The position numbers were made by a program, and so were the translations under genes. A stretch of DNA of 64,000 bases from a virus: IMG/VR virus record IMGVR_UViG_3300014208_000003, positions 94,263-158,262 of that record, one strand, 5' to 3'. Under the pieces are notes generated by a model. It had not been told where the DNA came from. It saw only the letters and a program-made list of their open reading frames with translations, and ran no database searches. Below are positions 9,444 through 48,971 of the stretch, one piece after another; position 1 is the first letter of the stretch; every line of letters starts with the position of its first letter.

Positions 9444-9530
9444 CTAAATAATATTGAAGGTTAGATTACCGCTTGTTACGGAAATCAATCTAAGGGAGAG
9501 TTAGACTGTCCCTTCAACATCAATATTTAG
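9444..9530 (+). promoter_or_regulatory. Three-way-junction element with inverted CTAAATA boxes (copy A)
   Basis: GAAGG-TTA-P2-AA-TCTAA/TTAGA-CTGTC-CCTTC; matches the copies at 34936 and 48881. Confidence 0.75.
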
Positions 9531-9541
9531 AGGGAGATATC

Positions 9542-10546
9542 ATGGGAAAGAAAAGATTAACAACAGAAGAATTCGTTCAAAGAGCAACAGAAATTCATGG
9601 CGATAAGTACGATTATTCAAAGGTAATATATCTTAATACAATGGCTAAAGTCAATATAATTTGTAAAATACACGGAGAATTTCAACAAACACCAAATAAA
9701 CATTTAAGTCATGAGCATGGTTGTCCGTATTGTGGTAATAATGTGATATTAACAACAGAAATATTTTTAGATCGATCAAAAGTAGCTCTTGGTGATAGAT
9801 ATGATTATAGTCAATCTGTATATGTGAATAGTTCAACACTTATTAAAATAAGATGTAAAGAACATGATCTTTGGTTTAATCAAAGACCGAGAGAACATAT
9901 TCTAGGTCAATTAGGTTGTAAAACATGTAGAGATATAATAGCTCATAATAAATTCGCCAAAACCACCGAACAATTTATAAAAGAAGCACAAGAACTACAT
10001 GGCAGTATAAGATATTCTTATCATAAAACAAAATATAATAAGGCGTTGGAAAAAGTAGAGATTGTTTGTAATAAACATAACATGTCTTTCTTTGTAAAAC
10101 CGTCACACCATTTAAGAGGAATAGGATGTCCTTTATGCAATTCTTCGTTCGGAGAGAGAATTATTAAACTATTTTTAGATAATAATAAAATACAACACAT
10201 ACACCAAAAACGTTTTTATGATTGCAGAAACAAAAAACCGCTACCGTTTGATTTTTATTTACCGGAACACAATACATGTATTGAATATGACGGTGAACAA
10301 CATTATTTTCCAGTTATAAGATTTCAGAAACATTACGTTACAGAACAAAATGCAATAAAAATACACGAAACTGTAAAAATACACGATTCTATTAAAACAA
10401 AATATTGCGAAGATAATAATATAAAATTACTAAGAATATCATATACACAAAGAGATGATATAAAAAATATTCTTAGTAAATATTTATTAAATAATCATCC
10501 ACATTTAGAAAATGTACACTGTGAACATTTTACACAACCATCGTAA
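9542..10546 (+). CDS. Free-standing homing endonuclease (repeated YDYSK/CxxHG..CPxC modules plus C-terminal PD-(D/E)xK/Vsr-like domain)
   Basis: Repeats 'HGDKYDYSKV..ICKIHGEF..GCPYC'; catalytic 'PFDFYLPEHNTCIEYDGEQH'; overlaps the nrdJ 3' end in antisense. Confidence 0.85.
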   Translation: MGKKRLTTEEFVQRATEIHGDKYDYSKVIYLNTMAKVNIICKIHGEFQQTPNKHLSHEHGCPYCGNNVILTTEIFLDRSKVALGDRYDYSQSVYVNSSTLIKIRCKEHDLWFNQRPREHILGQLGCKTCRDIIAHNKFAKTTEQFIKEAQELHGSIRYSYHKTKYNKALEKVEIVCNKHNMSFFVKPSHHLRGIGCPLCNSSFGERIIKLFLDNNKIQHIHQKRFYDCRNKKPLPFDFYLPEHNTCIEYDGEQHYFPVIRFQKHYVTEQNAIKIHETVKIHDSIKTKYCEDNNIKLLRISYTQRDDIKNILSKYLLNNHPHLENVHCEHFTQPS

Positions 10547-13500
10547 TAAATCATTTTTGAACCACAAGATTCACATATTTCTTTATATGATTCACCATCT
10601 TTGATATACTGTTTAAGAACTCTAGAAACGCTTTTATCGAACGAAGTAAAGTCGTCGCTCTTATTAAGTTGCTCAACTATGAATCTCAGGGGTACACCAT
10701 GACGGATTGACATTGAGATAAATCTTGCTAAACTTCTTTCTACCGTACTTCCAAATTTACCCAAATTATCAATAAGGATTTCTTCGTTGCATAACAATCT
10801 ATAATGATTTGTTTTTACTTTACGAATTATTCCCGATGTATGTTTTTCGTATTTTTCTTTATCTTTTTCATCTATAATAGCTACAAACATTTCATAAAGC
10901 ATACCATTCAATTTACCAACGAGAATTACCATATGATCGGATTTTACTTTTAATACCTTTATATCACATTCCAAGTCTTGCGGTCTTTTAGGTGCATCTC
11001 TACGACTAACATTTTCATTCTCTTTTACATCACTAGAAGCATGTCCTAATATATTATTTCTACATTCATCGCGATATACTGTAACACCGATTACACCTTT
11101 TTTATAAGCATCTAGATAAACCTTGGCAACCTGTTCTTTGGTAGCTTCTTTAGGCATGTTGATTGTCTTACTTACTGATAAAGATACATAGTTAGCAAAT
11201 GGTTCTAATATTTCGAGATGCCATTCGGGAGATATATCATTAGCAACTACGAATGTATCTTTTTCTTCTTTAGTTAGATATTTACAACTTTGAACAGAAC
11301 CGTTATGTTTAGTTACATGTGCGAGAATTTCTTCTTTATATTTAAGATATTTTTCATCAATAAACTTTTCAAAAACAGGATCTGCTATAAACATTTCGGT
11401 GTATTCTTTATTTCCTGTTTCTACTTTGCGAATATATACCAATCCAAATACAGGTTCGATACCAGAAGATGTGTTGACAATCGTAGAAATACTTCCTGTT
11501 GGAGCTATACTTGACAAACTGGAATTATATACTCCGTGTTTTTTAATATCTTCCACAAGATTATTATTAACAAGCATCCCGAATCGTTTAACAAAAGAAT
11601 CGTATTGACTAAAAAGTCTTTCGTTAGCTTTCAAATATATTTTTTCGTCATACCACTCAAACGTTTTTTTATTTTCTTTAGCTATTACACAACTTTCATC
11701 CATACCAACTAGCGTAATAAATTTCATTAGATCTTCTGCTATAGTTTTTGCTTGTATGGAATTATATTTAATTTTCATTTCGTATAAAGCATGAGCAAAA
11801 CCCATTAATCCTAAACCAATGGGACGAGATGAGTGCGATACTTTTTTTATCTTCTCTAATGGATAATTATTATTATCGATCACTGCATTTAGATAACGTA
11901 CAGCTTTTCTAACAATGATATTTAAACGATCATAATCAAAATCATTTTTTGAAACAAATTTAGAAACATCTATTGAACCAAGATTACAAGAAGTATAAGG
12001 AACAGTTGTGACAAACTCGGAACAATTTGAAATATTAAAACCATTACACCAAAAAGTATGAGAATCATTATCAACCGTTATATCAAAAACCGAATTTATA
12101 CCCATTGATTCTGTAGAAATTATTTCAAATTGTCTTTTTTTACGAGTAGTTTTTCGTTCCTCATTTAAAATAGTAATAACTTTTTCATTTTTATATTTTT
12201 GTAAAAATTTTATTTTATTAAAAAATTTATCTTTATCAGAACAAACATTTAAGTCATAAGATTCTTTAGATTTATATATTCCATTATCCCAAGTAATATT
12301 AGATGCTTTATTAGTTGTATAATATGACATGATTCCAATAGAATTTAACATTAATTGAACTTGATTTATCAATTCTTTACATGTAGATTTGAGAGTGATT
12401 CGTCCACCTGTAACAGAACCATTTGCGGAATATAAGCCTATTAAAAATCCAATTTTTTTAGAAGTATTTCCATAAAAAAATCTATCAGGTACTTTTCTAA
12501 CAGGTAACAAAGGAAGTTCAGCAATAGTTATAGTGGTTTTTATTTCGTAAATTTTATCAGATGATGGATATAAAGTACCTATTATTTTATCTTTTATATC
12601 AGAAATAAAATAATCACTATCATTAGCTCCTATTATTAACCCAATATCTTTGTTTCTATTGCTTAAATTTTTAAAATTTTTAGAATTGGTTGTTCCATCA
12701 CCCACAACAAGACCATCCATTATATCTCGAGGATCTATATTTTCAAATATATTTTCTCCAACTATCACATCTAACATTTCAGCATCTTTAATTTCTATCT
12801 TGATATCATCATTAACAATTCTATGATTATCAGTAGATTCTAAATAACCTGCTCTAGTTGTATATTTATAAACTTCCTTTTCACCTGTATACCATTTATT
12901 AATTACTGTAGTCCATCCTTCATTAGACCAAATTTCATCACCAATATTAATATCTTTTAATTGAACAATACCTTGCTTAGACAATAGAAGCGCGGTATCC
13001 ATCAAACATGGGTTTGTAAGTGCTTTATTATCAATATGTATTAGTGTGCTTCTATCCTTTATAAAATCTTCGTTAATAATTCCCGGTTCTGCTACACTCC
13101 ATGCCTGTTCAATAATTATATCCCACAACATTTCATAAGTATATTCTTTTCCGGAACTATCTTTTAAAACATTTTCCTGACCATTTGTTATGTTAATTGT
13201 TTTAAATATTTTTTTCGGATTTGCTTTTAAAACATTATAAAAATCATTATCTATCTTTATTGAAAAATTACTTCTGTTATATTCATTTAAGTTTTTCTTT
13301 GCATTTATAAAATCTAATATTTGTGGATGATATATTGACAAAAGGGACATGCCAGCTCCGCGCCTTATTCCTTGACGAATGCCACTTAAAACCGCATCAT
13401 AAATTCCCACAAAAGAAAGTACACCACCGGATTTTTTACCAGTTCCTTTCACCAATTCTTCTTTACCTCTTAATACAGAAAAATCAAGACCAACACCACC

Positions 13501-13794
13501 ACACGCTTTTGTCACTAGCGCAACTTCTTTCATCGATTCCATTATATCTTCCATATTGTCAGCAATATCCATAGGAAAACAAGATGATAGTGTACCTTTT
13601 CTTTCTCCGTTTGTATTAGCATTCATTAAAGTTGGAGATGATGGTACGAATTCCATTTTTTCTATATGTTCCGACATTGGTTCATATAATTTTCCTACAC
13701 GTTTTGCTAATTGTTGCCAAGAAGTTTCGTCATCTAAAAAATATCTATCTTTAAGTAGTTTTAAAATTTCTGGTGTCATAATCTCATTCCCCAT
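10495..13794 (-). CDS. nrdJ: Class II (B12-dependent) ribonucleotide reductase, intein-containing
   Basis: PSSPTLMNA, LSSCF, RRGAGM, NP[intein]CSE, SCNLGS, IAPTGSIS, C-terminal Zn ribbon; no beta subunit nearby. Confidence 0.88.
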   Translation of the reverse strand: MGNEIMTPEILKLLKDRYFLDDETSWQQLAKRVGKLYEPMSEHIEKMEFVPSSPTLMNANTNGERKGTLSSCFPMDIADNMEDIMESMKEVALVTKACGGVGLDFSVLRGKEELVKGTGKKSGGVLSFVGIYDAVLSGIRQGIRRGAGMSLLSIYHPQILDFINAKKNLNEYNRSNFSIKIDNDFYNVLKANPKKIFKTINITNGQENVLKDSSGKEYTYEMLWDIIIEQAWSVAEPGIINEDFIKDRSTLIHIDNKALTNPCLMDTALLLSKQGIVQLKDINIGDEIWSNEGWTTVINKWYTGEKEVYKYTTRAGYLESTDNHRIVNDDIKIEIKDAEMLDVIVGENIFENIDPRDIMDGLVVGDGTTNSKNFKNLSNRNKDIGLIIGANDSDYFISDIKDKIIGTLYPSSDKIYEIKTTITIAELPLLPVRKVPDRFFYGNTSKKIGFLIGLYSANGSVTGGRITLKSTCKELINQVQLMLNSIGIMSYYTTNKASNITWDNGIYKSKESYDLNVCSDKDKFFNKIKFLQKYKNEKVITILNEERKTTRKKRQFEIISTESMGINSVFDITVDNDSHTFWCNGFNISNCSEFVTTVPYTSCNLGSIDVSKFVSKNDFDYDRLNIIVRKAVRYLNAVIDNNNYPLEKIKKVSHSSRPIGLGLMGFAHALYEMKIKYNSIQAKTIAEDLMKFITLVGMDESCVIAKENKKTFEWYDEKIYLKANERLFSQYDSFVKRFGMLVNNNLVEDIKKHGVYNSSLSSIAPTGSISTIVNTSSGIEPVFGLVYIRKVETGNKEYTEMFIADPVFEKFIDEKYLKYKEEILAHVTKHNGSVQSCKYLTKEEKDTFVVANDISPEWHLEILEPFANYVSLSVSKTINMPKEATKEQVAKVYLDAYKKGVIGVTVYRDECRNNILGHASSDVKENENVSRRDAPKRPQDLECDIKVLKVKSDHMVILVGKLNGMLYEMFVAIIDEKDKEKYEKHTSGIIRKVKTNHYRLLCNEEILIDNLGKFGSTVERSLARFISMSIRHGVPLRFIVEQLNKSDDFTSFDKSVSRVLKQYIKDGESYKEICESCGSKMIYYDGCVKCSQCTFSKCG
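12025..13008 (-). mobile_element. LAGLIDADG intein (328 aa) inserted at the catalytic NPCxE motif of NrdJ
   Basis: Starts CLMDTALL; STDNH block B; GLVVGDG and GLYSANGSV endonuclease blocks; ends VFDITV..HTFWCNGFNISN/C. Confidence 0.92.
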
Positions 13795-14116
13795 CTTTTT
13801 CTGTAATAATGTTTTCCAAGGTTGGTTTAATCATTTCTTCTAGTTCTTCTATTTTACTTTGAAGTTTTTCGTTCTGTTCTTCTAGTCTCTCATTTGCTGT
13901 TTCTAATTCCTCGATCCGTTCTTCTGCGTCATTCAATTCTTCTTGTGCTTCGTCCAAGCGTTCTTTTTCATAATTATTCCGATTAATTTCTTCCAGCAGT
14001 TTTTCGATACCTTCTTCCGTGACCTTATTTGAAATAGCTCCATCGAATAAGATTTTGTATTCGTTACCTAGATTAAAATCATGTCTATCGATAATGTTTT
14101 GGATATTATTTTGCAT
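13784..14116 (-). CDS. Hypothetical coiled-coil protein
   Basis: E/L-rich heptads. Confidence 0.6.
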   Translation of the reverse strand: MQNNIQNIIDRHDFNLGNEYKILFDGAISNKVTEEGIEKLLEEINRNNYEKERLDEAQEELNDAEERIEELETANERLEEQNEKLQSKIEELEEMIKPTLENIITEKDGE

Positions 14117-14136
14117 TATGTTTTTCTCCTGATATT

Positions 14137-14164
14137 AATATAAGCACATTGAACTAGGAATCAA
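14137..14164 (-). promoter_or_regulatory. Promoter TTGATT-N16-TATATT
   Basis: Near-identical to 33571-33598. Confidence 0.6.
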
Positions 14165-14616
14165 GATGGAAAAAGAGATGTTTCGGAAATAACTACGAAT
14201 TCAAAACCTCTATCGGAACAGAATTCTTTAGCAGTTTTCCATTTATTTTGATTTTTGATATAGGTAGCGCATTCATTTAGATAATTTGCTTTTGATTTTT
14301 GAGTAACATTTTTTGGTTTTCTTGGTGGAATCATTTGTTTTTGTGGTTTGATTTCTACTATGAATTTCCGGATCTTTTTAAATTTATCTATAGCTTCGAA
14401 GTAGAAATCCGGATAATATTTATGAGTCTTTTTATCTAGTTCATAATAATAGGGAATTACTAAACATTCCGATCCCCATTTCAATACATTCGGGGAGTGA
14501 TCGAAATATTGTATTGCTCTTAATTCCCATGATGATCTATAGTGAGGTGGTTTTTCTCCTATATATTTACTTTTATTAACCACCTCATAATCACCATCAA
14601 GCCACTGTTTTCCCAT
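14161..14616 (-). CDS. Head completion nuclease (T4 gp4-like)
   Basis: YRSSWE, WGSE..IPY, YYPDF, VEIKP, NQNKW. Confidence 0.88.
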   Translation of the reverse strand: MGKQWLDGDYEVVNKSKYIGEKPPHYRSSWELRAIQYFDHSPNVLKWGSECLVIPYYYELDKKTHKYYPDFYFEAIDKFKKIRKFIVEIKPQKQMIPPRKPKNVTQKSKANYLNECATYIKNQNKWKTAKEFCSDRGFEFVVISETSLFPS

Positions 14617-15245
14617 TAGATTATCTCGTCAACTAGTCCATATTCCAAGCATGTTTTTGAATCGAACATTATATCATGCTTTAGAAGTTCGTTTAATTTT
14701 GCTTTAGGAATTTTTGTGTGTTCCAGATATATTTCTTTAATCAGTTTCATTTCATCGTGAACATTACTCATACCATCTTTTAATTCTTCATATTTTCCCC
14801 ATACACCTCCAGATAATTGGTGTATAAGAATTCTGGAATGTTTGTGCATGAGTCTTCTGGAGCATACGCAAGATATAAGTGATCCAGCAGAAGCAGCCAC
14901 GCCATCGACAATAGAAACAACATCTACTTTTTTCTTTAGGTTTATAATATGATCTACACAAGCAAGTCCAGCATATAATTCGCCACCGTTAGAATTGATA
15001 TGTAGAAAAACTTTATCCTGAACACCTTCTACGATAATTGCTTGTGTAATGACTTGATTAGATATACCATGAAGAGTTTTATTTAATTTTAGAACAGAGT
15101 CTCTAGTAATTTCGGAATAAAAATAAACTCTATTATCGACCACTTCTAGATAGGTTGGTTCGAGAAAAGATAAATCTGGAGTTATATCGGGAGTTGGTTC
15201 GCATCTGTTAAAACTAAATTTCTTACTTCCAAAATTACTATGCAT
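14616..15245 (-). CDS. clpP: ClpP-like serine protease (copy 2)
   Basis: HINSNGG, GVAASAGS (Ser), ILIHQLSGG (His), HDIMF..CLEYGLVDEI. Confidence 0.88.
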   Translation of the reverse strand: MHSNFGSKKFSFNRCEPTPDITPDLSFLEPTYLEVVDNRVYFYSEITRDSVLKLNKTLHGISNQVITQAIIVEGVQDKVFLHINSNGGELYAGLACVDHIINLKKKVDVVSIVDGVAASAGSLISCVCSRRLMHKHSRILIHQLSGGVWGKYEELKDGMSNVHDEMKLIKEIYLEHTKIPKAKLNELLKHDIMFDSKTCLEYGLVDEII

Positions 15246-16104
15246 TTAGAACCTCTGTTGTTAAGTGTTTGATTGATTCAGTGTAAAGAGCAAAATCATC
15301 CTTAATCTTTTTTAGGCTATTGGTAACACAAAATTCTAAAAATTTCATATAACCAAAGGACTCTAAACGGATGCTATCGAATGTATTTAACACCGATTTT
15401 TTAACATCTTCCGGAATCTCTTCAAACGATATTAACAATCTATTTCTTTTAATATTTTCTTTTACTTCGTCTGGTTGTTTATCATCGTACAAAATACCTT
15501 CATTAAAATATTTTGTAGCTTTTACTGGCCCTGTTTTTGGAAGAATTGCTGGAATATTATCACCGGAATCTCCCATTATAATTTTTACATCTAGATCTGT
15601 TAGGGGATTAAGACTTTCAAGATAATCGGCAGCGCAAGGACTGAATATTTTTACACCTTCAAATTTTAGTAGTTGTATAAAATCCTTATCAGAAGAAACT
15701 ATTGTAATATCTCCCAAATCTCTTTCTTTAGTTAGGATCGCAACAATATCATCACACTCAGAATCTTTAACTCTCATCCAATAAAAATTTGGGAATACTT
15801 TCTTTAACTCTTCTACAAAACCATCATTCACTTTATAGAACTGTTCATAATCGATTAGAGAGGCTTTACGTGCGTCTAAACGTTGTGCCTTATATTCCGG
15901 ATATACTTTCTTTCTCCATGACTTTGAATCGATTGCTATGACCACTCTATCAGGTTTAAATTTCAAAACATAATCCAGAATAGTTTTTGTCATTAAATGC
16001 TTCCAACCACCATAATTATCATCTATCAACATATTTTTATAAGCAATATATAAATTACGATACATTATATTATGCCAGTCAATCATTATTGTTTTTTTTC
16101 TCAT
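15238..16104 (-). CDS. rnh: RNase H / 5'-3' flap exonuclease (T4 rnh-like)
   Basis: SWRKKVYPEYKAQR, ECDDIVA, SSDKDFIQL, GDSGDNIP. Confidence 0.9.
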   Translation of the reverse strand: MRKKTIMIDWHNIMYRNLYIAYKNMLIDDNYGGWKHLMTKTILDYVLKFKPDRVVIAIDSKSWRKKVYPEYKAQRLDARKASLIDYEQFYKVNDGFVEELKKVFPNFYWMRVKDSECDDIVAILTKERDLGDITIVSSDKDFIQLLKFEGVKIFSPCAADYLESLNPLTDLDVKIIMGDSGDNIPAILPKTGPVKATKYFNEGILYDDKQPDEVKENIKRNRLLISFEEIPEDVKKSVLNTFDSIRLESFGYMKFLEFCVTNSLKKIKDDFALYTESIKHLTTEVLNA

Positions 16105-16424
16105 TAGTTTTCCTTAAATGTGTTGTGGATGGTGGTTATATATTTTAAACAATCTATTTCTAAGAACGGATCCGAAAGCATGTTCAGAACAACTTTTTCA
16201 ACACTGTCCGGAACTTGGTTTATTGCTCTCTGTTTGTTATCTAAATTGTGATCCCATGCTAATTCTGGTTCCGAACATTCTCCCATATTAGTTTCTACTC
16301 TTATCGCAATTACATATTCTCTATCTTCTATTTTTATTAGATTGTCAAAATAGTAGTAATAAATGATCCAATCATCCTCTATCCTGTCCATATTTATAGC
16401 GTACCAGAAACCTTCTAACGCCAT
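16104..16424 (-). CDS. PFFEIDL-tag family member (divergent)
   Basis: C-terminal QVPDSVEKVVLNMLSDPFLEIDCL. Confidence 0.65.
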   Translation of the reverse strand: MALEGFWYAINMDRIEDDWIIYYYYFDNLIKIEDREYVIAIRVETNMGECSEPELAWDHNLDNKQRAINQVPDSVEKVVLNMLSDPFLEIDCLKYITTIHNTFKEN

Positions 16425-16545
16425 TTTCTAACATCTATACAATTAAATTTTGTACTATCACAATCATCTGTTTTGGAATTATAATGTCTATCTTGTTTAA
16501 TACCCGCACAAGAACAAATTAGTAAAAGAGCTACTATTATTTTTA

Positions 16546-20495: not shown

Positions 20496-20504
20496 TTCTC
20501 CAAA

Positions 20505-33646: not shown

Positions 33647-34924
33647 TCAAAAAAGTTCCGCAAACAGCACAATCCAAAACAACATTAAACTGACATTCTC
33701 CCACGAATGAATTCGTGAGGTTCTTGTTTCCCTGAATCCGTTCGATAGGAACACGGATGTTCTTCTCTCGCGTTTGTTTGATTCTCCACAAGCGTAAATT
33801 CCCCTCTGCCCGAGGGTACTCAATCCTTCAGTTTCTATATTCCAACTTGCCTGTTCATCTCTGTCCTGTGTATGACCACAGCTAGGACAAACGAAGATTC
33901 TATCTTTTAGTGTTAACCCCTTATGGATTTCACCACAGACACTACAAAGTTTAGAGGAGGGAAACCATCTATTGATTTTAACTATCTCCCCTCCGTACCA
34001 TTTGACTTTGTATTCAAGTTGTTTCTTGATCTCCGAGAAAGAGGCATCCGCTACTGACTTTGACAGTTTGCGGTTCTTCAACATGCCTTTAACATTGAGA
34101 TCTTCTATAACAATATACCTCGGTTTGGTTTTCACCAAGTTAGATGTTATTTTATGTAAATTGTCTTTTCTGCAATTTGAAATTTTGTAGTGGATCTTCT
34201 GGACTCTCTTGATGGCTTTCTTTCTGTTTTGAGATCCTTTCTTCGTTCTGGATAGCCTTCTCTGCTGTCTACGGAGTTTCTTGGCGTACTTTCTGGTATT
34301 CTTTGGATTATCGAACGTCTGCCCATTTGAAGCAACCACAAGGGTTTTAATTCCGACGTCAATTCCAATAGCTGTCTCTGGCTTTGGTGCATCATGCATT
34401 TTAACTTCACAGTTTACAGATGCAAAATATCTCCCTGCTTGTTTTGAGATTGCGACGCTATAATATTTCACTGCGTTCAATGGGATGTAGTCCAATTCTT
34501 TTAATTTAACATCTCCGAGTTTTGCAAGGAAAATAGAATTGTCGTTTAGATGAAATCCGTTGTTCTGGAGTCTGAAAGAATCTCTGCTTTTGCCTTTACA
34601 TTTGAATTGAGGAAAACCAACTTTTCCTTTCTTTAAACCACGGAAGAAGTTCTTATATGCAACGTCTACATTTTTTAGAGACTGTTGGAGTGTTATAACA
34701 GAAACGTCATTTAAGTAGGAAAATTCTTCTGTTTCTTTCAATTTGGTTAGATCTTTACACAAGCTAAAGAAGGATAGAGACTTCTTTGTTTCCTCGTAGA
34801 ATTTCTTCTTCCGTTCTAAACCCATATTGAAGACTTTCCTGACACAACCAAACGTTTGTTCCATTAAGATCTTTTGTTCTTCTGTGGGATTTAATTCTAC
34901 TCTGAAGGCTCTAGAAACTATCAT
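33647..34924 (-). CDS. tnpB: TnpB RNA-guided endonuclease (IS200/IS605 OrfB)
   Basis: HTH_OrfB N-terminus, GIDVGIK, IVIEDLNV, CSVCG..CPSCG, DRDEQAS; RuvC D-E-D intact. Confidence 0.93.
   Translation of the reverse strand: MIVSRAFRVELNPTEEQKILMEQTFGCVRKVFNMGLERKKKFYEETKKSLSFFSLCKDLTKLKETEEFSYLNDVSVITLQQSLKNVDVAYKNFFRGLKKGKVGFPQFKCKGKSRDSFRLQNNGFHLNDNSIFLAKLGDVKLKELDYIPLNAVKYYSVAISKQAGRYFASVNCEVKMHDAPKPETAIGIDVGIKTLVVASNGQTFDNPKNTRKYAKKLRRQQRRLSRTKKGSQNRKKAIKRVQKIHYKISNCRKDNLHKITSNLVKTKPRYIVIEDLNVKGMLKNRKLSKSVADASFSEIKKQLEYKVKWYGGEIVKINRWFPSSKLCSVCGEIHKGLTLKDRIFVCPSCGHTQDRDEQASWNIETEGLSTLGQRGIYACGESNKRERRTSVFLSNGFRETRTSRIHSWENVSLMLFWIVLFAELF
33691..33830 (-). ncRNA. Putative TnpB omega-RNA scaffold
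   Basis: Overlaps the tnpB 3' end up to the right-end hairpin; the guide would start near GTTTAATGTTG; 5' boundary approximate. Confidence 0.55.
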
Positions 34925-34935
34925 CTGCTTCCTCT

Positions 34936-35020
34936 CTAAATATTTCCGGTGAGACAGATAGATTACTTCCGTCTATTTGGTTACTGATTATAACCTAATC
35001 ACCACTTTAATAGTATTTAG
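34936..35020 (-). promoter_or_regulatory. Three-way-junction element with inverted CTAAATA boxes (copy B)
   Basis: GGTGA-TTA-GGTTA/TAACC-AA-ATAGA/TCTAT-CTGTC-TCACC. Confidence 0.75.
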
Positions 35021-41096: not shown

Positions 41097-41320
41097 CGTG
41101 TGCCTTTCAAAATGAATTGTTTTCTTTTTTTATTTTGTAGATCGTAAATATCGGATTCTATTAATGTTAATCTTTCCTCGGTAGTTAGATTTGATCTTGT
41201 TATCAAAAACGCCTCTTTAGAATTTTTATATTCTTCGGACAAGCACAATACACATTTAAAATTGTAGTGAGGCGTTGAACTATTACACTTCGGACAAAAA
41301 GTTAAAAATGCCATATTACC

Positions 41321-41773: not shown

Positions 41774-42281
41774 TATCTCCCCAATCTGTATTTTAAACGT
41801 CTAATCCAAATAACAATTCGATGTCTAATGAACATTCCTAGATTTTCTTTATAACCAACAGTAAAGCAACAAAAGTCTTTACAAACATTTAGACTATCTT
41901 TATCCTCAAAATGTTTTAAACAATATCCATCTCCTGTTTCTTCTCTGTCTAGATCAATCCCGTTTCTAAAATACAGGCAAAAATCACAAATAGGTTCACA
42001 GAAGTTTTTACATTTTAACATTTAATCTTCGTCCGTTAAAGTTCCGTTATCAGCACCTTTATAGTTATCTTCTTCAAATGTTAAAACTTCTAATGTCATT
42101 TTTTTATCAAGTAACAAAACCTTATTTTCTTCCAAGCCTCTTTTTAATGATTTATATATTTCATTTCCTTGTAGAGTATTAAGAAAACCATCATATCTAA
42201 AAACAAGAATATCCTTTTTAGATATTTTCAAGCTATGTTCTATAGAGATTCCGGAATTATCAACAACACGAATTTTCATCA

Positions 42282-43316
42282 TCATTCTCCTTTATTTGCT
42301 CTATTGTATAATTCCAAAAGCTTCTTCAAAACATTCTCTTTATTATCTATTGTTTGAATGTTTATGTATTCTCTTATTAAATCTTCACTGGAATTAATTT
42401 TAGAAAAGTCCATACCATCAATAAGATCATCACCAAGGATTTCATTATTGATTTTTAGAACGGGAGGAAAAGCAGGTTTATACTCTTCAATTTTCTTAAT
42501 ATATTCCTGAACTTTTTCTTCATCAACTTCACCATCATATTTTACATTAACGTCTACAAAATTATTCCGGATAGTTTCTTCAGTAAATTCTTCCGGAAAA
42601 TTCAATATCTTAAACTGCATGGAAACTTTATTCTCTACAAATTCAAAAGTATTATCGTTCTTTAAAATTGTATAGCCTCGTGGTTCGTTAATATCTCCTC
42701 TTGTAATCTGATATGGAGAACCTATGTAAACAATATTCGTACTAGCAATTTCTTTAATACTTCTTGAATGAAAATGTCCAGTAAAAACATTCTTAAACTT
42801 ATCAACAAAAATATCTAGTGTTAGTCCATCTTCGGTAACTACATCTTTATTCATTGCAAAACCAAATAGATGAAAATGTCCGAAACAATTATTATACTTC
42901 TTTCCGCAAAATTCTAGATGTTCTATAAATGGTTTATCTTCTACTAGCCACGGAACAAATAAATCTTTTCCTATCTCTGTAATTTTATCTATTATCTGTA
43001 CATTTGGAAATTTAGACAAGAACTTTAATGAATGAACATCTATTGTCGAGTTGTAATAAATATCATGATTACCAAGAAGGATTATAACATTAAATTCCGC
43101 AAGATCTATCTCAAAAAGGTCATGAAGAATATTGAAGACTTTAATATTTACTGTTTGCCTTGTATCTAAAATATCACCTAGAATATAAATGTCCTTAATC
43201 TTCTTTGCTTTTGCTTCCGGAATTAGTTGCTCTCTTATGAATTTTAACTGAGAATCTAAAAATATTTCGTTTGCTTTCTTTACACCAAAATGCAGATCAG
43301 ATATTAAAATTTTCAT
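42282..43316 (-). CDS. Recombination nuclease (gp47, Mre11/SbcD-like)
   Basis: SDLHFG, LGD, GNHD, GHFH, YIGSPYQ. Confidence 0.92.
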   Translation of the reverse strand: MKILISDLHFGVKKANEIFLDSQLKFIREQLIPEAKAKKIKDIYILGDILDTRQTVNIKVFNILHDLFEIDLAEFNVIILLGNHDIYYNSTIDVHSLKFLSKFPNVQIIDKITEIGKDLFVPWLVEDKPFIEHLEFCGKKYNNCFGHFHLFGFAMNKDVVTEDGLTLDIFVDKFKNVFTGHFHSRSIKEIASTNIVYIGSPYQITRGDINEPRGYTILKNDNTFEFVENKVSMQFKILNFPEEFTEETIRNNFVDVNVKYDGEVDEEKVQEYIKKIEEYKPAFPPVLKINNEILGDDLIDGMDFSKINSSEDLIREYINIQTIDNKENVLKKLLELYNRANKGE

Positions 43317-43685
43317 CTATACTATCCTTGATTTATATAGGCTTGCTAATTCTTTTTCTATTGTTTCAATCAACTCCGGAATCTTTTCATATTGCTTTCT
43401 AAAAAGATATGCCTTGATTCCAGCTATAGCGTCTTTTATTAATTTTTTATCAACCAAATCTTCTAAAATATTTTCTGTCATCAACGTTTCACTGTCTTTA
43501 TCATATCCCATTCTGTTCACTAATTTATCTACTTCGTCTTTATGTATTTTAAACTGTCCTCTTGGTGGTCTGATTGCTTTTATAGTACCATCTACACACC
43601 AATTAGAAACGGTCTGTCTCGATGTTCCTATAATATGGGCGACTGTTCCGGTTGTGTAGTATAGTTTATTTGGTCTACTACTCAT
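43317..43685 (-). CDS. Excisionase/MerR-type HTH protein
   Basis: YYTTGTVAHIIGTSRQTVSNW..G.IKA.R. Confidence 0.7.
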   Translation of the reverse strand: MSSRPNKLYYTTGTVAHIIGTSRQTVSNWCVDGTIKAIRPPRGQFKIHKDEVDKLVNRMGYDKDSETLMTENILEDLVDKKLIKDAIAGIKAYLFRKQYEKIPELIETIEKELASLYKSRIV

Positions 43686-44043
43686 TTTCTCTGGCCATCT
43701 CCTCTATGAAAGACAACGATATAATTTTTTGATTCCTTCTGTTTATTGCGCCTAGATAATGAGTAAATGTTTTAAAGGCAATCTCTGAGAAATAAGCAAA
43801 AGGATTTCCCCTAGTAATATCATAAGACTTAATATACCGTACCATGTAATAAGTAGCATCCGAAGTCATTTCATCTTTATAATCTTTAGAGTAATTCATG
43901 AAACCGGGCTTCTGTAAAATATTGGAAGTTATCTGAAGAAATATTTTACCAATCTCGTTAAAGCTATACCGATCCTTTTCATTAAACCATTTTTCCAATA
44001 ATTCCTGAAACCTCTTATTGTCCACATAATGCTTCTTTTTCAT
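43678..44043 (-). CDS. Late-transcription sigma factor (T4 gp55-like)
   Basis: HYVDNK, FMNYS..KDEM.SDA, NPFAYFS; located next to gp46/47. Confidence 0.85.
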   Translation of the reverse strand: MKKKHYVDNKRFQELLEKWFNEKDRYSFNEIGKIFLQITSNILQKPGFMNYSKDYKDEMTSDATYYMVRYIKSYDITRGNPFAYFSEIAFKTFTHYLGAINRRNQKIISLSFIEEMARENE

Positions 44044-44375
44044 ATTGGCTGTACATCCTCTACTGATATTTTACACCCATCAAAAACTTTTAAACATTTT
44101 TCATCGTTTATAACATTTTGTATTGTGTTTTCTTTATGATCAAAATTATCGAATACCCAATCATCGGCATTTATCTCAACCTCTAACTTCACAAGATATT
44201 TAGAAGACTTATTTCCGGATGCCTTTAAACAATCATCACAGACAAAAATTTTAAAACTCTCACCGTCAAATTCCGAACCATATTGACAATTAACATTTAC
44301 CTCAGTTCCGGAAGATATAGTGTTAGTCATTGTTATTATTTCCAACTCTTTTTCACATTTAATACATTTGTTCAT
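44040..44375 (-). CDS. Hypothetical Cys-rich protein
   Basis: CIKC...YGSEFD..CDDC. Confidence 0.55.
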   Translation of the reverse strand: MNKCIKCEKELEIITMTNTISSGTEVNVNCQYGSEFDGESFKIFVCDDCLKASGNKSSKYLVKLEVEINADDWVFDNFDHKENTIQNVINDEKCLKVFDGCKISVEDVQPI

Positions 44376-44398
44376 AATTTCTCCTACTTAAATAATAA

Positions 44399-44647
44399 TC
44401 ACTTTGTCGTAGAATGTCTGAATCTTTCTAAATCAATTTCGAAAAAAGGATCTTGTAACTTCTTATCAAACATTTTTACAACATCTTCCGGAACATCCGA
44501 TTCTGGAATTTCTAATATTTGTCGGTATCGCGATCTTTCAAATATCAAATCGCTGTTAGGAATCCTGTTTTTATCAATAGTTCTTAGTGCGATATGTTCA
44601 GTGATTGCCAAATAATAATTTCCAAGACATTCTTCCCAATATCTCAT
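44399..44647 (-). CDS. PFFEIDL-tag family
   Basis: SDVPEDV..LQDPFFEIDLERF. Confidence 0.8.
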   Translation of the reverse strand: MRYWEECLGNYYLAITEHIALRTIDKNRIPNSDLIFERSRYRQILEIPESDVPEDVVKMFDKKLQDPFFEIDLERFRHSTTK

Positions 44648-44910
44648 TTCAAACTTTCTTTGTAACGTATCAGATCAATTTCGAAAAAAGGATTTGAAAT
44701 ATATTCCCAAATCCTTTTCATCACTTCTTCCGGAACATCTTTTTCAAAAACCTCTTTATAATCACTTCTACCACCTTGTATTATCCTAGAACAATAATTA
44801 TTATCTTTGTATCTTTCGGACGTCAAACAAACACCAAACCAAATTTGATCTTCTACTTCTATCCACCATGCATCAGAGTGTTCAGAATATTCTATGTATA
44901 ATTCCTTCAT
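44644..44910 (-). CDS. PFFEIDL-tag family
   Basis: EKDVPEEV..NPFFEIDLIRY. Confidence 0.8.
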   Translation of the reverse strand: MKELYIEYSEHSDAWWIEVEDQIWFGVCLTSERYKDNNYCSRIIQGGRSDYKEVFEKDVPEEVMKRIWEYISNPFFEIDLIRYKESLK

Positions 44911-47096
44911 TCTATCTCTATTCGACTAAAACCATTCACTTTCTTTATTCCGATCCTTCTGTCAAATAATTCTGTATCAAATGTTCTGTGACTAATGATA
45001 TAATAGCTCTGGTTATCTTTGGACATTGCCTTTAAACATAACATCATTTTATCAAGACCTTCTCCATCAACAGCACCATCTAAAAGTTCATCAATAAAAA
45101 GAAGGTTACTATTCCAATTACAGATCATTTTAACAATCTCAATAAATGTAAACAGAATTGATATATCTACTCTTTTCTGTTCTCCTCCGCTCAAAGAATC
45201 ATAACCAACAGGATCGAATCTACTGGCTGTCATATTAAAAACCTTATCTTCCATCTGTTCATCAAAAATTACTTTCAAAGGTAATTCAAATTTATTCAGG
45301 TATTCATTTACTTTAACATTGAACAGAGGAATCAGCTTCTTCATAAAAAATGATTTGATACCAGTTTCGGATAAAATCTCTTGAACAACCAATGCTTCAT
45401 TCAAATCCTTATCAATAGTTTTTGTTGTTTCATATAGCTCTTTGTATTCAGAACATTTTCCTTTAAATGATTCCTCTAATTCTTCAATATTCATTTCAAA
45501 TTTTCTTTTACCGATATCCAGAATTCTATTATTACATTCAACCATCTCTTTTTCGGAATTACTTATTTTCAGACCAATCATTTTAATATCGTTTTCAATC
45601 TTCTGTTTCTGAATCTCTTTTGTCCGAATGCCTTTTACCAATTCTTCTTTCTCTTTCAAACCATCATTCAAAACAGTTACTTCGGAATCTATTTTTATAA
45701 TTTCTTCCTGAATCTCTTTTATCTTTTCGTCCGATATTTCTAATAACTGTTTCTGTATCTCTTTTAACTCATGTTCCAGACCAGCCCTTTCAACAGTCAA
45801 TACCTTTAATTCACTTTCTTTGGATGATCTTGACTCATTGTTCTGTTTAATAGTTTTGATTTTAAGAACCAACTCAGAAATATTTTTGGTGTTATCTGCT
45901 ATTTTCTTTTCACGATCTTCAATAGTAATTCTTAAACTATCTATCGTATCCATTTTATCCACACCATCTATCGCTTCTAATGATTGATAACAGGTAGGAC
46001 AAACATCATTATCCTGTAAAAACTTTCTTTTGGTTTTATCAGAAGAATTATTAGAAACCATTAATGCATTCTCTGTTTTATACTCGCTTACTTTTGTTTC
46101 TAATTCCTGATATTCTTCTTTCTTCAACCATTCAAAATCCTTTTCTATATCAACTTTTTTCAAATCATATTCCGAAATACTCTTCTGTAACTTTTCGGAT
46201 TTTTCTTTAAGAGTAGTTTTGGAAGATGCCTTTGTAACAATCTCTTTATTCAGAACTGTCTTGGATGATAATTTTTCGGCAATATCTTTCGTAAATTGCC
46301 GAATATTAGTTTCTGCTTCTTCTTTACTTTCAATTTTAATAGTGCTAAGAGTCGTTTCTAAAGAGGATAATTCAGAAGCATATATAGTGAGACGGTCTGA
46401 AATATCTTTAATTGTAGACTCTTCTTTTGTTGTATCATCTAATTTCTGCTTATCAAAATTTTCTAGGGCTTTCTTTGTCTGGGTTATATTATTTCGCATC
46501 TGTTTTATAGACTCTTCTAAAACAGTAATTATTTTTCCGTTAGTATCTTTTTGAATCTTTAATCCAGAAATATCCTTCTTAAGACTTTTCAACATCTCAC
46601 CGAAAACTTTTATATTAAAAATGCTTTCAACAATATCTCTTTTTTCCTGAAGCTGCATTTTTAAGAAAGGCTTATTCTGATTAACAGATAACACTAGGAT
46701 CTGCTTGAATAACGTGTAATCTATCCCAAGAATTTTATCAATCTCGTCCTGAATCAATTTTTTTGAAGAAAGCAATTCTAGTTCCTGATCATTCTTATAT
46801 ATTTTAACACTATCCGGTGACATGGTTCTGACTATTCTGTACTCTTCCGAAGCAATATTGAAAAAGCATTCCGTGAACAATCCTTTTTTATTTGTCTTGT
46901 TTATAAGCTCTTTTAATTTAATATCTCTGTAAGGTTTTCCGTAAAGATTGTATGTGAGTGCTTCGGTGATACTTGACTTTCCGCAACCATTCGCAGCAGA
47001 TACATTTATTAGTCCATCATCAAATACAACTTCTGTGATATTGTTTCCATAAGACATGATATTAGAGAATCTTATTTTCTTAAACTTAATGAACAT
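44907..47096 (-). CDS. Recombination ATPase (gp46, Rad50/SbcC-like)
   Basis: NGCGKSS, coiled coil with CPTC hook, LSGGE, FIDE, ISH. Confidence 0.93.
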   Translation of the reverse strand: MFIKFKKIRFSNIMSYGNNITEVVFDDGLINVSAANGCGKSSITEALTYNLYGKPYRDIKLKELINKTNKKGLFTECFFNIASEEYRIVRTMSPDSVKIYKNDQELELLSSKKLIQDEIDKILGIDYTLFKQILVLSVNQNKPFLKMQLQEKRDIVESIFNIKVFGEMLKSLKKDISGLKIQKDTNGKIITVLEESIKQMRNNITQTKKALENFDKQKLDDTTKEESTIKDISDRLTIYASELSSLETTLSTIKIESKEEAETNIRQFTKDIAEKLSSKTVLNKEIVTKASSKTTLKEKSEKLQKSISEYDLKKVDIEKDFEWLKKEEYQELETKVSEYKTENALMVSNNSSDKTKRKFLQDNDVCPTCYQSLEAIDGVDKMDTIDSLRITIEDREKKIADNTKNISELVLKIKTIKQNNESRSSKESELKVLTVERAGLEHELKEIQKQLLEISDEKIKEIQEEIIKIDSEVTVLNDGLKEKEELVKGIRTKEIQKQKIENDIKMIGLKISNSEKEMVECNNRILDIGKRKFEMNIEELEESFKGKCSEYKELYETTKTIDKDLNEALVVQEILSETGIKSFFMKKLIPLFNVKVNEYLNKFELPLKVIFDEQMEDKVFNMTASRFDPVGYDSLSGGEQKRVDISILFTFIEIVKMICNWNSNLLFIDELLDGAVDGEGLDKMMLCLKAMSKDNQSYYIISHRTFDTELFDRRIGIKKVNGFSRIEIE

Positions 47097-47139
47097 GGAA
47101 GACCTTTCTACTGTGTTTTATTGTTAAACGCACTCTTTT

Positions 47140-47167
47140 ATAATAAGCACTTTGAATAGAAAAGCAA
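47140..47167 (-). promoter_or_regulatory. Promoter TTGCTT-N16-TATTAT upstream of gp46
   Basis: Shares TTCAAAGTGCTTAT with 3185-3212. Confidence 0.6.
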
Positions 47168-47343
47168 GACCCTTTCTTTCTGTCTTATCTTTGAGAATCG
47201 GAATCACACTGTTTTAGTCTTTTTTTTTTATTAATATACTTCCCCATTCCTTACCGCTATTAGTAAAGAAGTGTTACAATCATTTTTCTATCATCAAACA
47301 GTCATTTTCAAGTAGTGTTTGATCGGAACGCATGCGCTGTGCA

Positions 47344-47497
47344 AAAATGCCTTATAACGGCATTTTTATCTGTTGTTTATCAAAGGCAGTTTATTTCTGA
47401 ATTCCTAAGTAATTACTGAGGCATTTCTAAAAACTTATTAAGGCATTCCAGAGTAAATTCTATATTAGTTTGATCTAGTATTTTATTAAGGCATTTC
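47344..47497. repeat. Cluster of AGGCATT-like short repeats in a ~580-bp non-coding gap
   Basis: Direct copies near 47357, 47383, 47418, 47435, 47483 and an inverted copy at 47344. Confidence 0.6.
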
Positions 47498-47682
47498 ATT
47501 TAAATATTCCCTAGTAACTTTGCAACAAGAAGAATTTATTGATATCTGACTAAGTTGTATACCGAAGTATCTTAAATATAGAAAGAATTATTGATGAGTT
47601 CTTTTTTACCAATATCTGTGATTAACCTGCTAAAAAATAACAGGAGATAAAAAAACTAACAAAGATGTTCTAAATCTATTTT

Positions 47683-48867
47683 TTAAAGAAGCGGATATTT
47701 ATTGATCCGATATCCTTTATACAATAGTTTCTTCTTAAAGTCTGTATTCGTAATAACAGTCTTTTCCCAACGCTTCTGATACTTAAATTTAGCTCCATCA
47801 GTGAAGAACGCGAAATTACTCGAATGGCATTTTCTTGAATAAATTATATATGCGAGACTAAGTAATTTTTCACGATCACTTTCCGGAGCATTTTTTATAA
47901 CAAAATTTAATTTATTATGTGATTCTACTAAGTTGTTCCAGTCCTTATTTCCATTATATACGTTATCAATACAAGGAAATTTTTTCTGGACATATTTATT
48001 TTTTATAGTTATTGCTGAATTAAAATCTTTTTGGTATATAGTTTTTGTTTGTATTTTTGCATTAATATTTTGTCTGTTAATTAAATGTTCCGTTCCTAAT
48101 AACAAGTCAGAATCTGTTTGTGCTAAATTTGCTGTAGTATTAATAATTCGTTTTGATAATGATTTAATGTCTTTAAAATGATATCTGTCTAATCCTGTTA
48201 TTTCTTGAATTTCTGAATAAGTAACAGGACGTTCAAAAAGTGTGTTGTTAATAAATATTGCGTTACAGTGATTTAAAAAAGTTGATTCGGAAGATAATGT
48301 TTTGTAATATTCAATTGTGTATTTCGTAATTAATAAAGTCTGATTGTAAAAATTGTTTTTAAGATGTAATAGTTTTTTAATTCGTTCAAAGCATTTTATG
48401 GAATCACTTATTGTAAAATTTGCGTTTAAAAGATTGTTTGGATTAGTTTCTTTAGTCGTTATAAATTTTTGTTGGCATAGAAATAATAATGATTTTTGTA
48501 ATTGAATATCGTTAATTTTATGTTTATCTATATTGTGAATTTTTATATTATCAGCAGTTATCGGAATATTTCTTGAACGTAAATGCCTAATTGTAACATA
48601 AACAGAGAAGATATAGGATTTAACTTTCAAGGCATTCATTGCAAAAATAGTGTTATAATCAATCTTGCAAATAGGTAACAATAGATGATTCTGGGGATCA
48701 TTCTCTATATACCATTCAAGAGGTTTCAAATCAGGATTAAAAGAAGGACTCGGAATATTGCCTAAACAGAATCTTTTACCATCTTCTACTGAGCGATATA
48801 TTTCAGAATTAGATTTCTCTTTTTCTTGGTATCTTTGGTCTCTGTTTAATTCTCTGTTAAAAATCAC
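47683..48867 (-). CDS. Orphan 394-aa basic protein, possibly DNA-binding
   Basis: GTG start; HTH-like YSEIQEITGLDR; preceded by element copy C. Confidence 0.55.
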   Translation of the reverse strand: MIFNRELNRDQRYQEKEKSNSEIYRSVEDGKRFCLGNIPSPSFNPDLKPLEWYIENDPQNHLLLPICKIDYNTIFAMNALKVKSYIFSVYVTIRHLRSRNIPITADNIKIHNIDKHKINDIQLQKSLLFLCQQKFITTKETNPNNLLNANFTISDSIKCFERIKKLLHLKNNFYNQTLLITKYTIEYYKTLSSESTFLNHCNAIFINNTLFERPVTYSEIQEITGLDRYHFKDIKSLSKRIINTTANLAQTDSDLLLGTEHLINRQNINAKIQTKTIYQKDFNSAITIKNKYVQKKFPCIDNVYNGNKDWNNLVESHNKLNFVIKNAPESDREKLLSLAYIIYSRKCHSSNFAFFTDGAKFKYQKRWEKTVITNTDFKKKLLYKGYRINKYPLL

Positions 48868-48880
48868 GTTTACCCTTGTT

Positions 48881-48971
48881 CTAAATATTGTTGGTAGGAC
48901 AGTTTGATTTTACCCGTCAAATTGGTTGAACTGATTTATTCAACCTAACTACCACTTTTAATTGTATTTAG
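48881..48971 (-). promoter_or_regulatory. Three-way-junction element with inverted CTAAATA boxes (copy C)
   Basis: GGTAG-TTA-GGTTGAA/TTCAACC-AA-TTTGA/TCAAA-CTGTC-CTACC. Confidence 0.75.

Follow-up and report, generated by a model that had tools for sequence, protein, structure and literature searches.

Our analysis of a 64,000-nucleotide window, which is part of the genome of a 158-kb T4-like phage, reveals that a compact element in front of three genes is a widespread, phage-only, three-way-junction RNA that was previously uncatalogued, with the reservation that an unnamed entry in the 2023 IMG/VR structured-RNA catalogue (PMC10690425) is not excluded. The hairpin loops of the element track the Shine–Dalgarno (SD) region of the neighbouring gene and covary with it. 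The analysis demonstrates the structure, its covariation, its gene association, the positional behaviour of a promoter motif, and the matching of loops to SD regions.

The window contains three copies of the element, which are the only copies in the whole genome: copy A (9444–9531, + strand), copy B (34935–35020, − strand), and copy C (48880–48971, − strand). All three share the layout P1-TTA-P2-AA-P3-CTGTC-P1′, bracketed by inverted CTAAATA boxes, and AATATTTAGA leads straight into the ribosome-binding site (RBS). The earlier note had described three copies with this layout at these positions, and direct inspection agrees. The P1 stems are GAAGG/CCTTC, GGTGA/TCACC, and GGTAG/CTACC, and the P3 stems are TCTAA/TTAGA, ATAGA/TCTAT, and TTTGA/TCAAA. 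The earlier note had also called the junction linkers TTA, AA, and CTGTC invariant, which holds inside this genome but not family-wide, where TTA, TAA, or TGA occurs and CTGTC has variants. The composite CTGTC-N(6–20)-AATATTTAG occurs 3 times, versus 0.02 expected. Identity between the copies is 65–87%, and a covariance model built from copies B and C only recovers copy A at an E value of 4e-8, with no other match in the window or genome. The features are as follows.

9444..9450, + strand: CTAAATA late-promoter box of copy A, reading into the element (CUGUC strand), predicted start at about 9456
9454..9517, + strand: core three-way junction of copy A, with P1 (9454–9460/9511–9517), TTA (9461–9463), P2 (9464–9486), AA (9487–9488), P3 (9489–9505; loop L3, 9494–9500), and CTGTC (9506–9510)
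9524..9530, − strand: second CTAAATA box of copy A, 5 nt from the extended P1; predicted start of an antisense (GACAG-strand) RNA
9531..9544, + strand: SD region and endonuclease ATG; AGGGAGA is a copy of loop L3
9542..10546, + strand: homing endonuclease gene (DUF4379 treble-clef; PHROG 559 HNH endonuclease)
35014..35020, − strand: CTAAATA box of copy B, reading into the element towards tnpB
34947..35004, − strand: core three-way junction of copy B, with P1 (35004–34999/34952–34947), TTA, P2 (34995–34979), AA, P3 (34976–34958), and CTGTC (34957–34953)
34936..34942, + strand: opposite-strand CTAAATA box of copy B, 5 nt from P1, with about 3 kb downstream without a gene
34922..34935, − strand: SD region and tnpB ATG; GGAAG also occurs in loop L3
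33647..34924, − strand: tnpB (OrfB_IS605, Cas12f1-like TNB)
48965..48971, − strand: CTAAATA box of copy C, reading into the element
48892..48954, − strand: core three-way junction of copy C, with P1 (48954–48949/48897–48892), TTA, P2 (48945–48924), AA, P3 (48921–48903), and CTGTC (48902–48898)
48881..48887, + strand: opposite-strand CTAAATA box of copy C, 5 nt from P1, with about 3 kb downstream without a gene
48865..48880, − strand: SD region and GTG start; GGGTAAA (48875–48869) is a copy of loop L3
47683..48867, − strand: 394-aa orphan ORF, with one 52%-identical homologue

Folding of each window copy beats that of its own shuffles (z of −2.5 to −4.6), although it is mainly the antisense strand whose minimum-free-energy structure reproduces the three-way junction exactly. 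Across the family alignment, 92.4% of cells are paired versus 62.8% in shuffled alignments, and 219 cells are altered on both sides versus 68.5. In particular, P1 is 100% paired, with four pair types; slid controls are 35–47% paired; and P0, formed by the box and its complement, is 85% paired. An independent MAFFT/RNAalifold run recovered P1 and P2; MAFFT misaligns copy A and P3, and model-based alignments were therefore used. Many of the homologues are mutually related, so the permutation counts overstate independence. The covariance-model search proposed in the earlier note finds homologues in uncultured phages with covarying stems, and covariation over more than 50 of them bears out the structure-level selection that the note had inferred from three copies. 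The pairs comprise 801 Watson–Crick, 14 G–U, and 29 A–C, so that A–C mismatches, which are G–U pairs on the GACAG strand, exceed G–U pairs by 29:14. The argument for the antisense strand from a G–U pair in one copy is weak by itself, but the family-wide bias points in the same direction.

A combination of the covariance model and pattern scans identified more than 50 further copies in uncultured phages, with 1–7 per genome, and a pattern scan of 185,579 prokaryote genomes gave 117 matches, just 1 of which has the stems. At the gathering threshold, no Rfam 15 family matches the element on either strand, and only three tRNAs pass in the window; at E values up to 10, no match overlaps copy A, B, or C or the copy in another phage locus (L082), in line with the earlier note, which did not recognise the element as a named RNA motif. 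Marginal model matches in L131 and L132 were discarded on inspection, and the strict flank pattern CTAAATA...CTGTC...AATATTTAG gave 19 matches in IMG/VR, all attributable to chance. Megablast of phage records revealed no close relatives of the window phage (UvsW is at most 38% identical), and a BLAST search of cultured phages with two element loci had no matches.

Homing-endonuclease-type domains are present in at least 30 of 45 genes adjacent to the element. Specifically, NUMOD3 is present in 14, DUF7487 in 11, GIY-YIG in 7, and DUF4379 in 3, with single matches to TnpB, HNH, and a TnsA-like protein; the proposed association with selfish nucleases thus holds in a tabulation of neighbouring genes. 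The 394-aa orphan has no match in Pfam, PHROG, or PDB and no relatives found among viral contigs, and an Atlas search yields only weak winged-helix hints. The suggestion that copy B lies inside the insertion sequence is not supported: none of 9 loci with TnpB relatives from other phages has a copy, which speaks against the element being an IS200/IS605 left end. Copies A and C, like nearly all copies outside the window, adjoin genes other than tnpB.

The CTAAATA motif behaves as a late promoter of the window phage. Genome-wide, 24 of 49 sites are intergenic, where the non-coding share of the genome is 6.3%, and 21 sites have a co-oriented start at most 110 nt downstream, including those of the sheath, gp25 (baseplate), and M15 lysin genes; control heptamers have just 1–8 intergenic sites out of 40–114. 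The signal is positional, and the raw count in the window is not enriched (19 versus 23 expected). This positional bias upholds the claim that CTAAATA precedes late genes. Seven genes have the arrangement CTAAATA-N5-ATG, as leaderless late genes, which fixes the position of the transcript start. In all three copies, the inverted CTAAATA box is exactly 5 nt from P1, the spacing of the leaderless late genes, and the predicted antisense start is therefore the first base of P1. The sense-strand box is 3–10 nt from P1, and a CTAAATA box is 90–98 nt upstream of each of the three gene starts. Two convergent late promoters per element, as put forward in the earlier note, are thus supported by motif position, in the absence of transcript data. 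In AT-rich phages, promoter boxes are partly palindromic, which leaves CTAAATA and TATAAATA as the only boxes with an unambiguous direction.

The loops match SD regions in two arrangements. In most phages, loop L2 of the GACAG strand is complementary to an SD downstream on the same RNA; in the window, with the genes on the CUGUC strand, the SD repeats the sequence of loop L3, which leaves an RNA from the opposite strand as its only possible partner. We scored shared stretches of at least 7 nt between each loop and its own flank, as compared to the flanks of other elements (n = 41): L2 matched the inverted left flank in 22/41 (other elements' flanks, 13.8%), L3 matched the inverted left flank in 12/41 (3.5%), and L3 matched the direct right flank in 11/41 (2.6%), with the remaining five loop/flank combinations at null level. 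For paralogues within one genome, matched versus mismatched values are 6.9 versus 4.5 (G060) and 7.4 versus 5.2 (G057). Duplexes of the antisense L3 loop with the cognate SD are predicted at a mean of −10.3 kcal/mol, versus −5.2 when mismatched, with the own SD ranked first or second in 15/17 cases; the window duplexes are predicted at −11.7, −7.1, and −9.4 kcal/mol (ranks 1, 1, and 2 of 17). The L3/SD-region identity reaches 7–13 nt past the SD core and covaries among paralogues; loop–SD identity in the window is just 5–7 nt, with 5 contiguous bases in copy B. No same-strand complement of the shared L3/SD stretch is present within 300 nt, and the SD, one base beyond the outer stem P0, is unpaired in every predicted fold. 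Two further ideas, that CUGUCC serves as an anti-SD in cis or that L3 forms a pseudoknot with the junction, suit copy A and the L268 clade but fail for copies B and C and for most other members, and a mini-ORF beginning in P3 was dropped, having its start codon in one clade only.

We propose that this phage-specific junction of about 60 nt accompanies free-standing selfish nuclease genes as they move and restrains their translation. It lies between two inward-facing promoter boxes, from which, in the T4-like window phage, both strands would be transcribed starting at P1, and it holds two arms with "programmable" loops that match the SD region of the neighbouring gene. In most phages, with the gene downstream on the GACAG strand, L2 would pair with the complementary SD, which, often being positioned in the loop of its own small hairpin, could form a kissing complex, and L3 would pair with a helper hairpin and, together with L2, hide the RBS in cis. 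In the window, GACAG-strand RNA from the second CTAAATA box would be the partner, proposed because the SDs copy L3 and have no complement on the CUGUC strand: a small late antisense RNA would pair with the leaders of the endonuclease, tnpB, and orphan mRNAs and, via its L3 loop, with their SDs. The earlier note had offered a cis-regulatory RNA, a late antisense RNA, or a portable cassette; loop–SD matching favours the antisense option here. Without transcript data, production of both RNAs, formation of the pairing, and the repressive effect are inferred, and we consider a portable translation-repressor cassette, acting in the window through a small late antisense RNA, an evenly balanced proposition. 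The broader reading, a new widespread class of phage riboregulator in which a portable junction module with two programmable loops throttles selfish nucleases of at least five families, by cis SD–hairpin kissing or by trans late antisense RNA, we advance more tentatively, at slightly under even chances. A weak point is that the two arrangements use different partners for the SD, L2 acting in cis and L3 acting in trans, so that the unity of mechanism is not obvious. Copies B and C have no clear terminator after the antisense RNA, and, apart from a presumed role in arm geometry, the best model offers no explanation for the conserved junction bases.

Homing endonuclease genes of the T4 family (I-TevI, I-TevII, I-TevIII, segB, Aeh1 mobE, and seg43(25)) are under late-promoter/hairpin translational control, and the precedents include a hairpin that lies against the RBS but leaves it uncovered (PMC2988022). 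As in those systems, the element is an RNA structure directly 5′ of a homing endonuclease ORF, with a late promoter at its base and the RBS as its proposed target. Unlike those hairpins, which are simple, gene-specific, and hold the RBS in a stem, a criterion that the unpaired, complement-free SD does not meet, the element folds as a conserved three-way junction whose junction bases hardly vary, carries a second inverted promoter box, is shared by dozens of phages and by nuclease genes of at least five families, and would reach the SD through a loop, either on the same RNA or from the opposite strand. In IS10, the antisense RNA-OUT controls translation of the transposase mRNA, RNA-IN, and physically overlaps the RBS. 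The element resembles IS10 in having predicted promoters that face each other in front of a selfish gene and in the proposed short structured antisense RNA with a loop that pairs with the ribosome-binding region, and it meets the criterion of RBS complementarity (L3 reverse complement with cognate SD, predicted −7.1 to −11.7 kcal/mol); it differs in that its antisense RNA would start upstream of the RBS, reaching it only via the SD-copying loop, and in folding as a three-way junction, not a single hairpin. IS605-orfB, HEARO, RAGATH, and ribozyme families in Rfam 15 are likewise structured RNAs beside mobile nuclease genes, and none of their models matches the element.

An expression cassette acting only in cis, with a late promoter followed by a stable 5′-terminal junction that protects or tunes the mRNA, is unlikely but deserves weight. 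The inverted box would pair with the promoter box (as P0) only in early or middle read-through transcripts, a large structure against the SD would delay translation until late, and L3 would be an SD mimic or ribosome standby site. The box and complement on either side of the junction, present in L150 (TATAAATA/TATTTATA) as in the window, the family-wide pairing of P0, the nearby sense-strand promoter, and the T4 precedents I-TevI, segB, mobE, and seg43(25) (PMC2988022) fit this reading; however, no predicted stem contains the SD, a standby site needs none of the extended, covarying L3/SD identity, both orientations of the element with respect to the nuclease gene are found, and the exact 5-nt spacing of the opposite-strand box is kept.

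Those two orientations, together with an HNH gene flanked by two copies (L166), a sheath/tube junction found both interrupted by an endonuclease gene and uninterrupted (L289 and L297), and the scarcity of G–U pairs, which leaves both strands foldable, would also suit a role in DNA, in which a branched single-stranded or extruded structure, or a conserved linker, promotes recombination and shuffling of nuclease cassettes. The precedent is the promoter-early stem-loop (PeSL) mobile regulatory cassettes of T4-type phages (PMC2839356, PMC4122927), which are likewise multi-copy, portable, intergenic units of promoter and structure, associated with non-core genes and able to flank an insert on both sides. 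PeSLs, however, combine a sigma-70 early promoter with a GC-rich terminator hairpin, are near-identical within a genome, and act by homologous recombination; the element has CTAAATA late-type boxes, three covarying AT-rich helices, and SD-matched loops, so PeSL criteria are not met. The identity between same-genome copies is too low for good recombination substrates, and covarying loop–SD complementarity is an RNA-level signature, which makes this role improbable. A terminator or insulator separating the inserted gene from its neighbours, for which we see slightly less chance still, would account for elements that often begin 2–20 nt past an upstream stop codon on the gene strand and for T or A runs before or after some copies (e.g. 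both L166 copies); but T-runs are inconsistent, for which reason this reading was dropped, with none abutting P1 in the window, divergent intergenic regions offer nothing to terminate, and the conserved junction bases and SD-matched loops are left unexplained. Least credible is a mere hitch-hiker beside the nuclease genes, either a self-cleaving ribozyme or a small RNA that acts in trans on another target (e.g. a host defence factor). A compact junction with conserved unpaired bases, beside mobile genes where ribozymes are common, and a sub-threshold RAGATH-18 match nearby invite it, but the Rfam search up to E of 10 matched no ribozyme or other RNA family on either strand, the junction strands of 3, 2, and 5 nt read directly lack a hammerhead core, and the loops follow the neighbouring SD, not a common external target.

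Free-standing homing endonucleases and TnpB are toxic passengers that need restrained expression, and, to our knowledge, such restraint has so far been described only as gene-specific hairpins in a few T-even phages. The element would add a new family to RNA databases and could offer a compact, designable part for translation control. A shared RNA module, with loops that can be retuned to any RBS, would account for the domestication of unrelated nuclease genes when they enter a phage genome.

Direct reading of the window bears out the layout that the earlier note had described for copies A (9444-9531, plus strand, before the homing endonuclease gene at 9542-10546), B (34935-35020, minus strand, before tnpB) and C (48880-48971, minus strand, before a 394-aa orphan ORF, for which searches gave no assignment): each is a three-way junction, P1-TTA-P2-AA-P3-CTGTC-P1′, between inverted CTAAATA boxes. 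The composite CTGTC-N(6-20)-AATATTTAG is present 3 times in the window (expected: 0.02). The same note proposed a covariance model of all three copies; one trained on B and C alone recovers full-length A (E 4e-8); neither this model nor a later 32-sequence model finds a copy beyond the three in the window or the genome. The view that this is not a named RNA motif also stands: at gathering score, Rfam 15 reports only three tRNAs in the window, and at E up to 10, on both strands, nothing overlapping the element. The 158,262-bp IMG/VR virus record, of which the window is the final 64 kb, bears terminal repeats, and its phage encodes UvsW, UvsY, gp25, tail sheath, and neck protein, indicating that it is T4-like.

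Searching phage databases, likewise suggested, revealed a large family. A fourth copy, found with the first model, lies in a 224-kb phage contig (L082), beside a homologue of the copy-A endonuclease. We performed two IMG/VR pattern scans on the core blocks, filtering matches by P1, P2, and P3 pairing; those listed split cleanly into unpaired chance matches and at least about 30 true copies. The final model, run on whole contigs, raises the count to more than 50 distinct copies; single genomes hold 1-7, with seven in one 405-kb phage and seven in one 205-kb phage. Many homologues are mutually related, so that permutation counts overstate their independence. In prokaryotes (one genome per species, 185,579 species), only 1 of 117 pattern matches has the stems, indicating that the element is essentially confined to phages.

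The alignments support the proposed structure-level selection. In a model-based alignment of 32 sequences, standard pairs fill 92.4% of cells (62.8% when shuffled, 35-47% with slid partners), and both-side changes occur in 219 cells, compared with 68.5 in shuffles. P1 pairs in 100% of cases, with four pair types; P2 also covaries fully once more distant members are included; and RNAalifold, applied to an independently made MAFFT alignment, identifies P1 and P2 again, with 11 compensated pairs. The truly conserved positions are the G-C pair closing P1, the U-N-A linker, AA, and (C)UGUC-C. In the core helices of 52 sequences, 801 pairs are Watson-Crick, 14 are G-U, and 29 are A-C, which reads as G-U on the opposite strand. 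Because wobble pairs are so scarce, either strand can fold; the GACAG strand (antisense to the window genes) is modestly favoured, in agreement with the earlier inference from a single G-U pair in copy A.

The CTAAATA box is not enriched in raw count. Its placement is distinctive: 24 of 49 sites genome-wide fall in the 6.3% of DNA that is non-coding, compared with 1-8 intergenic among 40-114 sites for six control heptamers, and 21 stand no more than 110 nt ahead of a co-oriented start. The genes behind it include tail sheath, baseplate gp25, M15 lysin, neck protein, and uvsW. Placement and genes served fit a T4-type late promoter, as the note had proposed, with no transcript data. At seven genes the box stands five nucleotides before the start codon (CTAAATA-N5-ATG), implying leaderless transcripts whose first base would be the sixth past the box and suggesting, at the level of sequence, leaderless late mRNAs in this T4-like phage. 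One such site precedes the long ORF of uvsW (window 54334-54348, plus strand); the other six lie at genome positions 18388, 19565, 55730, 57735, 62194, and 76405. Six of the 24 intergenic boxes are the elements' own, inward-facing and on both strands, so that the claimed pair of convergent boxes is present in all three copies. The distance from the GACAG-strand box to P1 is exactly 5 nt in A, B, C, and L150, another phage locus with the element, in which both boxes are the canonical T4 TATAAATA; an opposite-strand RNA would thus begin at the first base of P1, although no expression data exist. In copies B and C, about 3 kb downstream of the second box carries no gene. For sigma-70-type hosts, box direction cannot be read, because the boxes are partly palindromic.

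The element is intergenic and directly precedes a gene, either on one side or on both. As tabulation of the adjacent genes shows, nuclease families dominate among 45: NUMOD3 (14), DUF7487 (11, with a C2H2 finger as frequent companion), GIY-YIG (7), DUF4379 (3), and one match each to TnpB, HNH, and TnsA-like families; PHROGs labels those tested as homing endonucleases. The usual sites are the DNA following ribonucleotide reductase or RtcB genes, the interior of a split nrdD, and the tail sheath/tail tube junction, where one locus (L297) has the element without an endonuclease gene and another (L289) has both. One HNH gene has a copy on either side, and both orientations relative to the nuclease gene are about equally frequent. 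In the IMG/VR fragment L336, an inserted 394-aa ORF splits nrdD into N- and C-terminal ORFs, with an element directly after the N-terminal piece, a genes-in-pieces layout resembling Aeh1 nrdA/mobE. Elsewhere in the genome, beyond the window, a further TnpB-like gene (TNB domain, G000:C1:18388-19464, just past the tail sheath gene) and a gene for an HNH_3 endonuclease (G000:C1:63544-64295) have a CTAAATA box and no three-way junction, indicating that the element is not used by every selfish gene of the phage.

Other features of the window
7134-7379, minus strand: three tRNA genes, after the Ro60 gene
7386-8702, minus strand: Ro60/TROVE-vWA gene
8878-8995 and 9014-9143, minus strand: two YrlA-like Y-RNA matches before the Ro60 gene, sub-threshold (28 bits, gathering score 69)
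10495-13794, minus strand: ribonucleotide reductase large subunit, with a LAGLIDADG insert as an intein-like interruption of the barrel domain
33721-33792, minus strand: RAGATH-18 match within the tnpB 3′ end, sub-threshold (36 bits, threshold 44.9, E 7e-4)

The Ro60 gene, Y-RNA-like matches, and tRNAs (7134-9143, minus strand) resemble a Ro/Y-RNA module carried by the phage; copy A's antisense promoter aims at this region, across a 68-aa ORF (9225-9431). About 50 nt are shared between the reductase 3′ end and the endonuclease gene (9542-10546), which converges on it. The tnpB 3′ end is the expected place of the TnpB guide (omega) RNA scaffold.

The loops of P2 and P3 (L2 and L3) track the Shine-Dalgarno (SD) sequence of the adjacent gene, a new observation absent from the original finding. 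Each element's loops were compared with its own flanks and with the flanks of every other element; a shared stretch of at least 7 nt counted as a match. Three combinations exceed the null: L2 with the inverted left flank (22/41, null 13.8%), L3 with the inverted left flank (12/41, null 3.5%), and L3 with the direct right flank (11/41, null 2.6%); the remaining five are at null level. In one arrangement, with the GACAG strand as the reading strand, the SD of the gene that follows on the same RNA complements L2, and L3 finds its complement in the loop of a further small hairpin between element and SD. In particular, the seven paralogues of the 205-kb phage present a 7-nt SD in the loop of an AT-rich hairpin, different in each copy and always matching its own L2 (6.9 matched, 4.5 mismatched), the sequence signature of a kissing loop that would mask the SD in cis. 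All seven (L500-L505 of this phage, G060) share the P3 hairpin GGG-AGCTA-CCC, whose self-complementary loop (AGCU) could allow loop-loop dimerisation. In the other arrangement, which includes A, B, C, L150, and all seven paralogues in the 405-kb phage, the CUGUC strand carries the gene, and L3 recurs as a copy in the SD region. The stretch in common is 7-13 nt long, reaches past the SD core, and covaries among paralogues (7.4 matched, 5.2 mismatched). Its complement is absent from the CUGUC strand within 300 nt, leaving the L3 loop of an opposite-strand RNA as the sole available SD partner. The duplexes predicted for that loop with its own SD have a mean of -10.3 kcal/mol, compared with -5.2 for mismatched pairs; those of A, B, and C are -11.7, -7.1, and -9.4 kcal/mol, ranking 1, 1, and 2 of 17.

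Several other explanations were weighed. A cis-only late cassette, in which a box/anti-box helix would form in read-through transcripts alone and crowd the SD, is modelled on the T4 I-TevI family and seg43(25) (PMC2988022); we consider it unlikely. A DNA-level recombination linker of the PeSL kind (PMC2839356, PMC4122927) seems improbable, a terminator or insulator slightly more so, and a ribozyme or unrelated small RNA very improbable. In its logic, the element resembles IS10 RNA-OUT and the T4 control of endonuclease genes by hairpin and late promoter; as a portable cassette, it resembles PeSLs. It lacks defining features of the T4 hairpins and of PeSLs; for IS10-like antisense control, the complementarity to the SD is present and the opposite-strand RNA is inferred from the inverted box alone. 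A full-text literature search on control of phage homing endonucleases by kissing loops or three-way junctions returned nothing relevant; it did not cover the tables of a catalogue from 2023 (PMC10690425), whose roughly 8,500 IMG/VR structured-RNA candidates without names could include the element.

Translation control by paired RNAs has its own weak points: the loop-SD matches in the window are short (5-7 nt), the conserved junction bases are left unexplained, and different loops serve the cis and trans arrangements. Fold, family, gene association, promoter-motif positioning, and loop-SD matching are observed; the existence of both RNAs, the formation of contacts, and repression as their effect are inferred, without expression data. 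In the proposed mechanism, the left CTAAATA box would drive late transcription of the endonuclease, tnpB, or orphan gene, with the junction as leader of the mRNA; the right box would drive a short antisense RNA starting at P1, which would fold into the mirror junction and could dock on the leader loops and SD. The element may be a portable cassette that controls the translation of selfish nuclease genes and acts here via late mRNA and antisense RNA, a reading to which we give about even odds.
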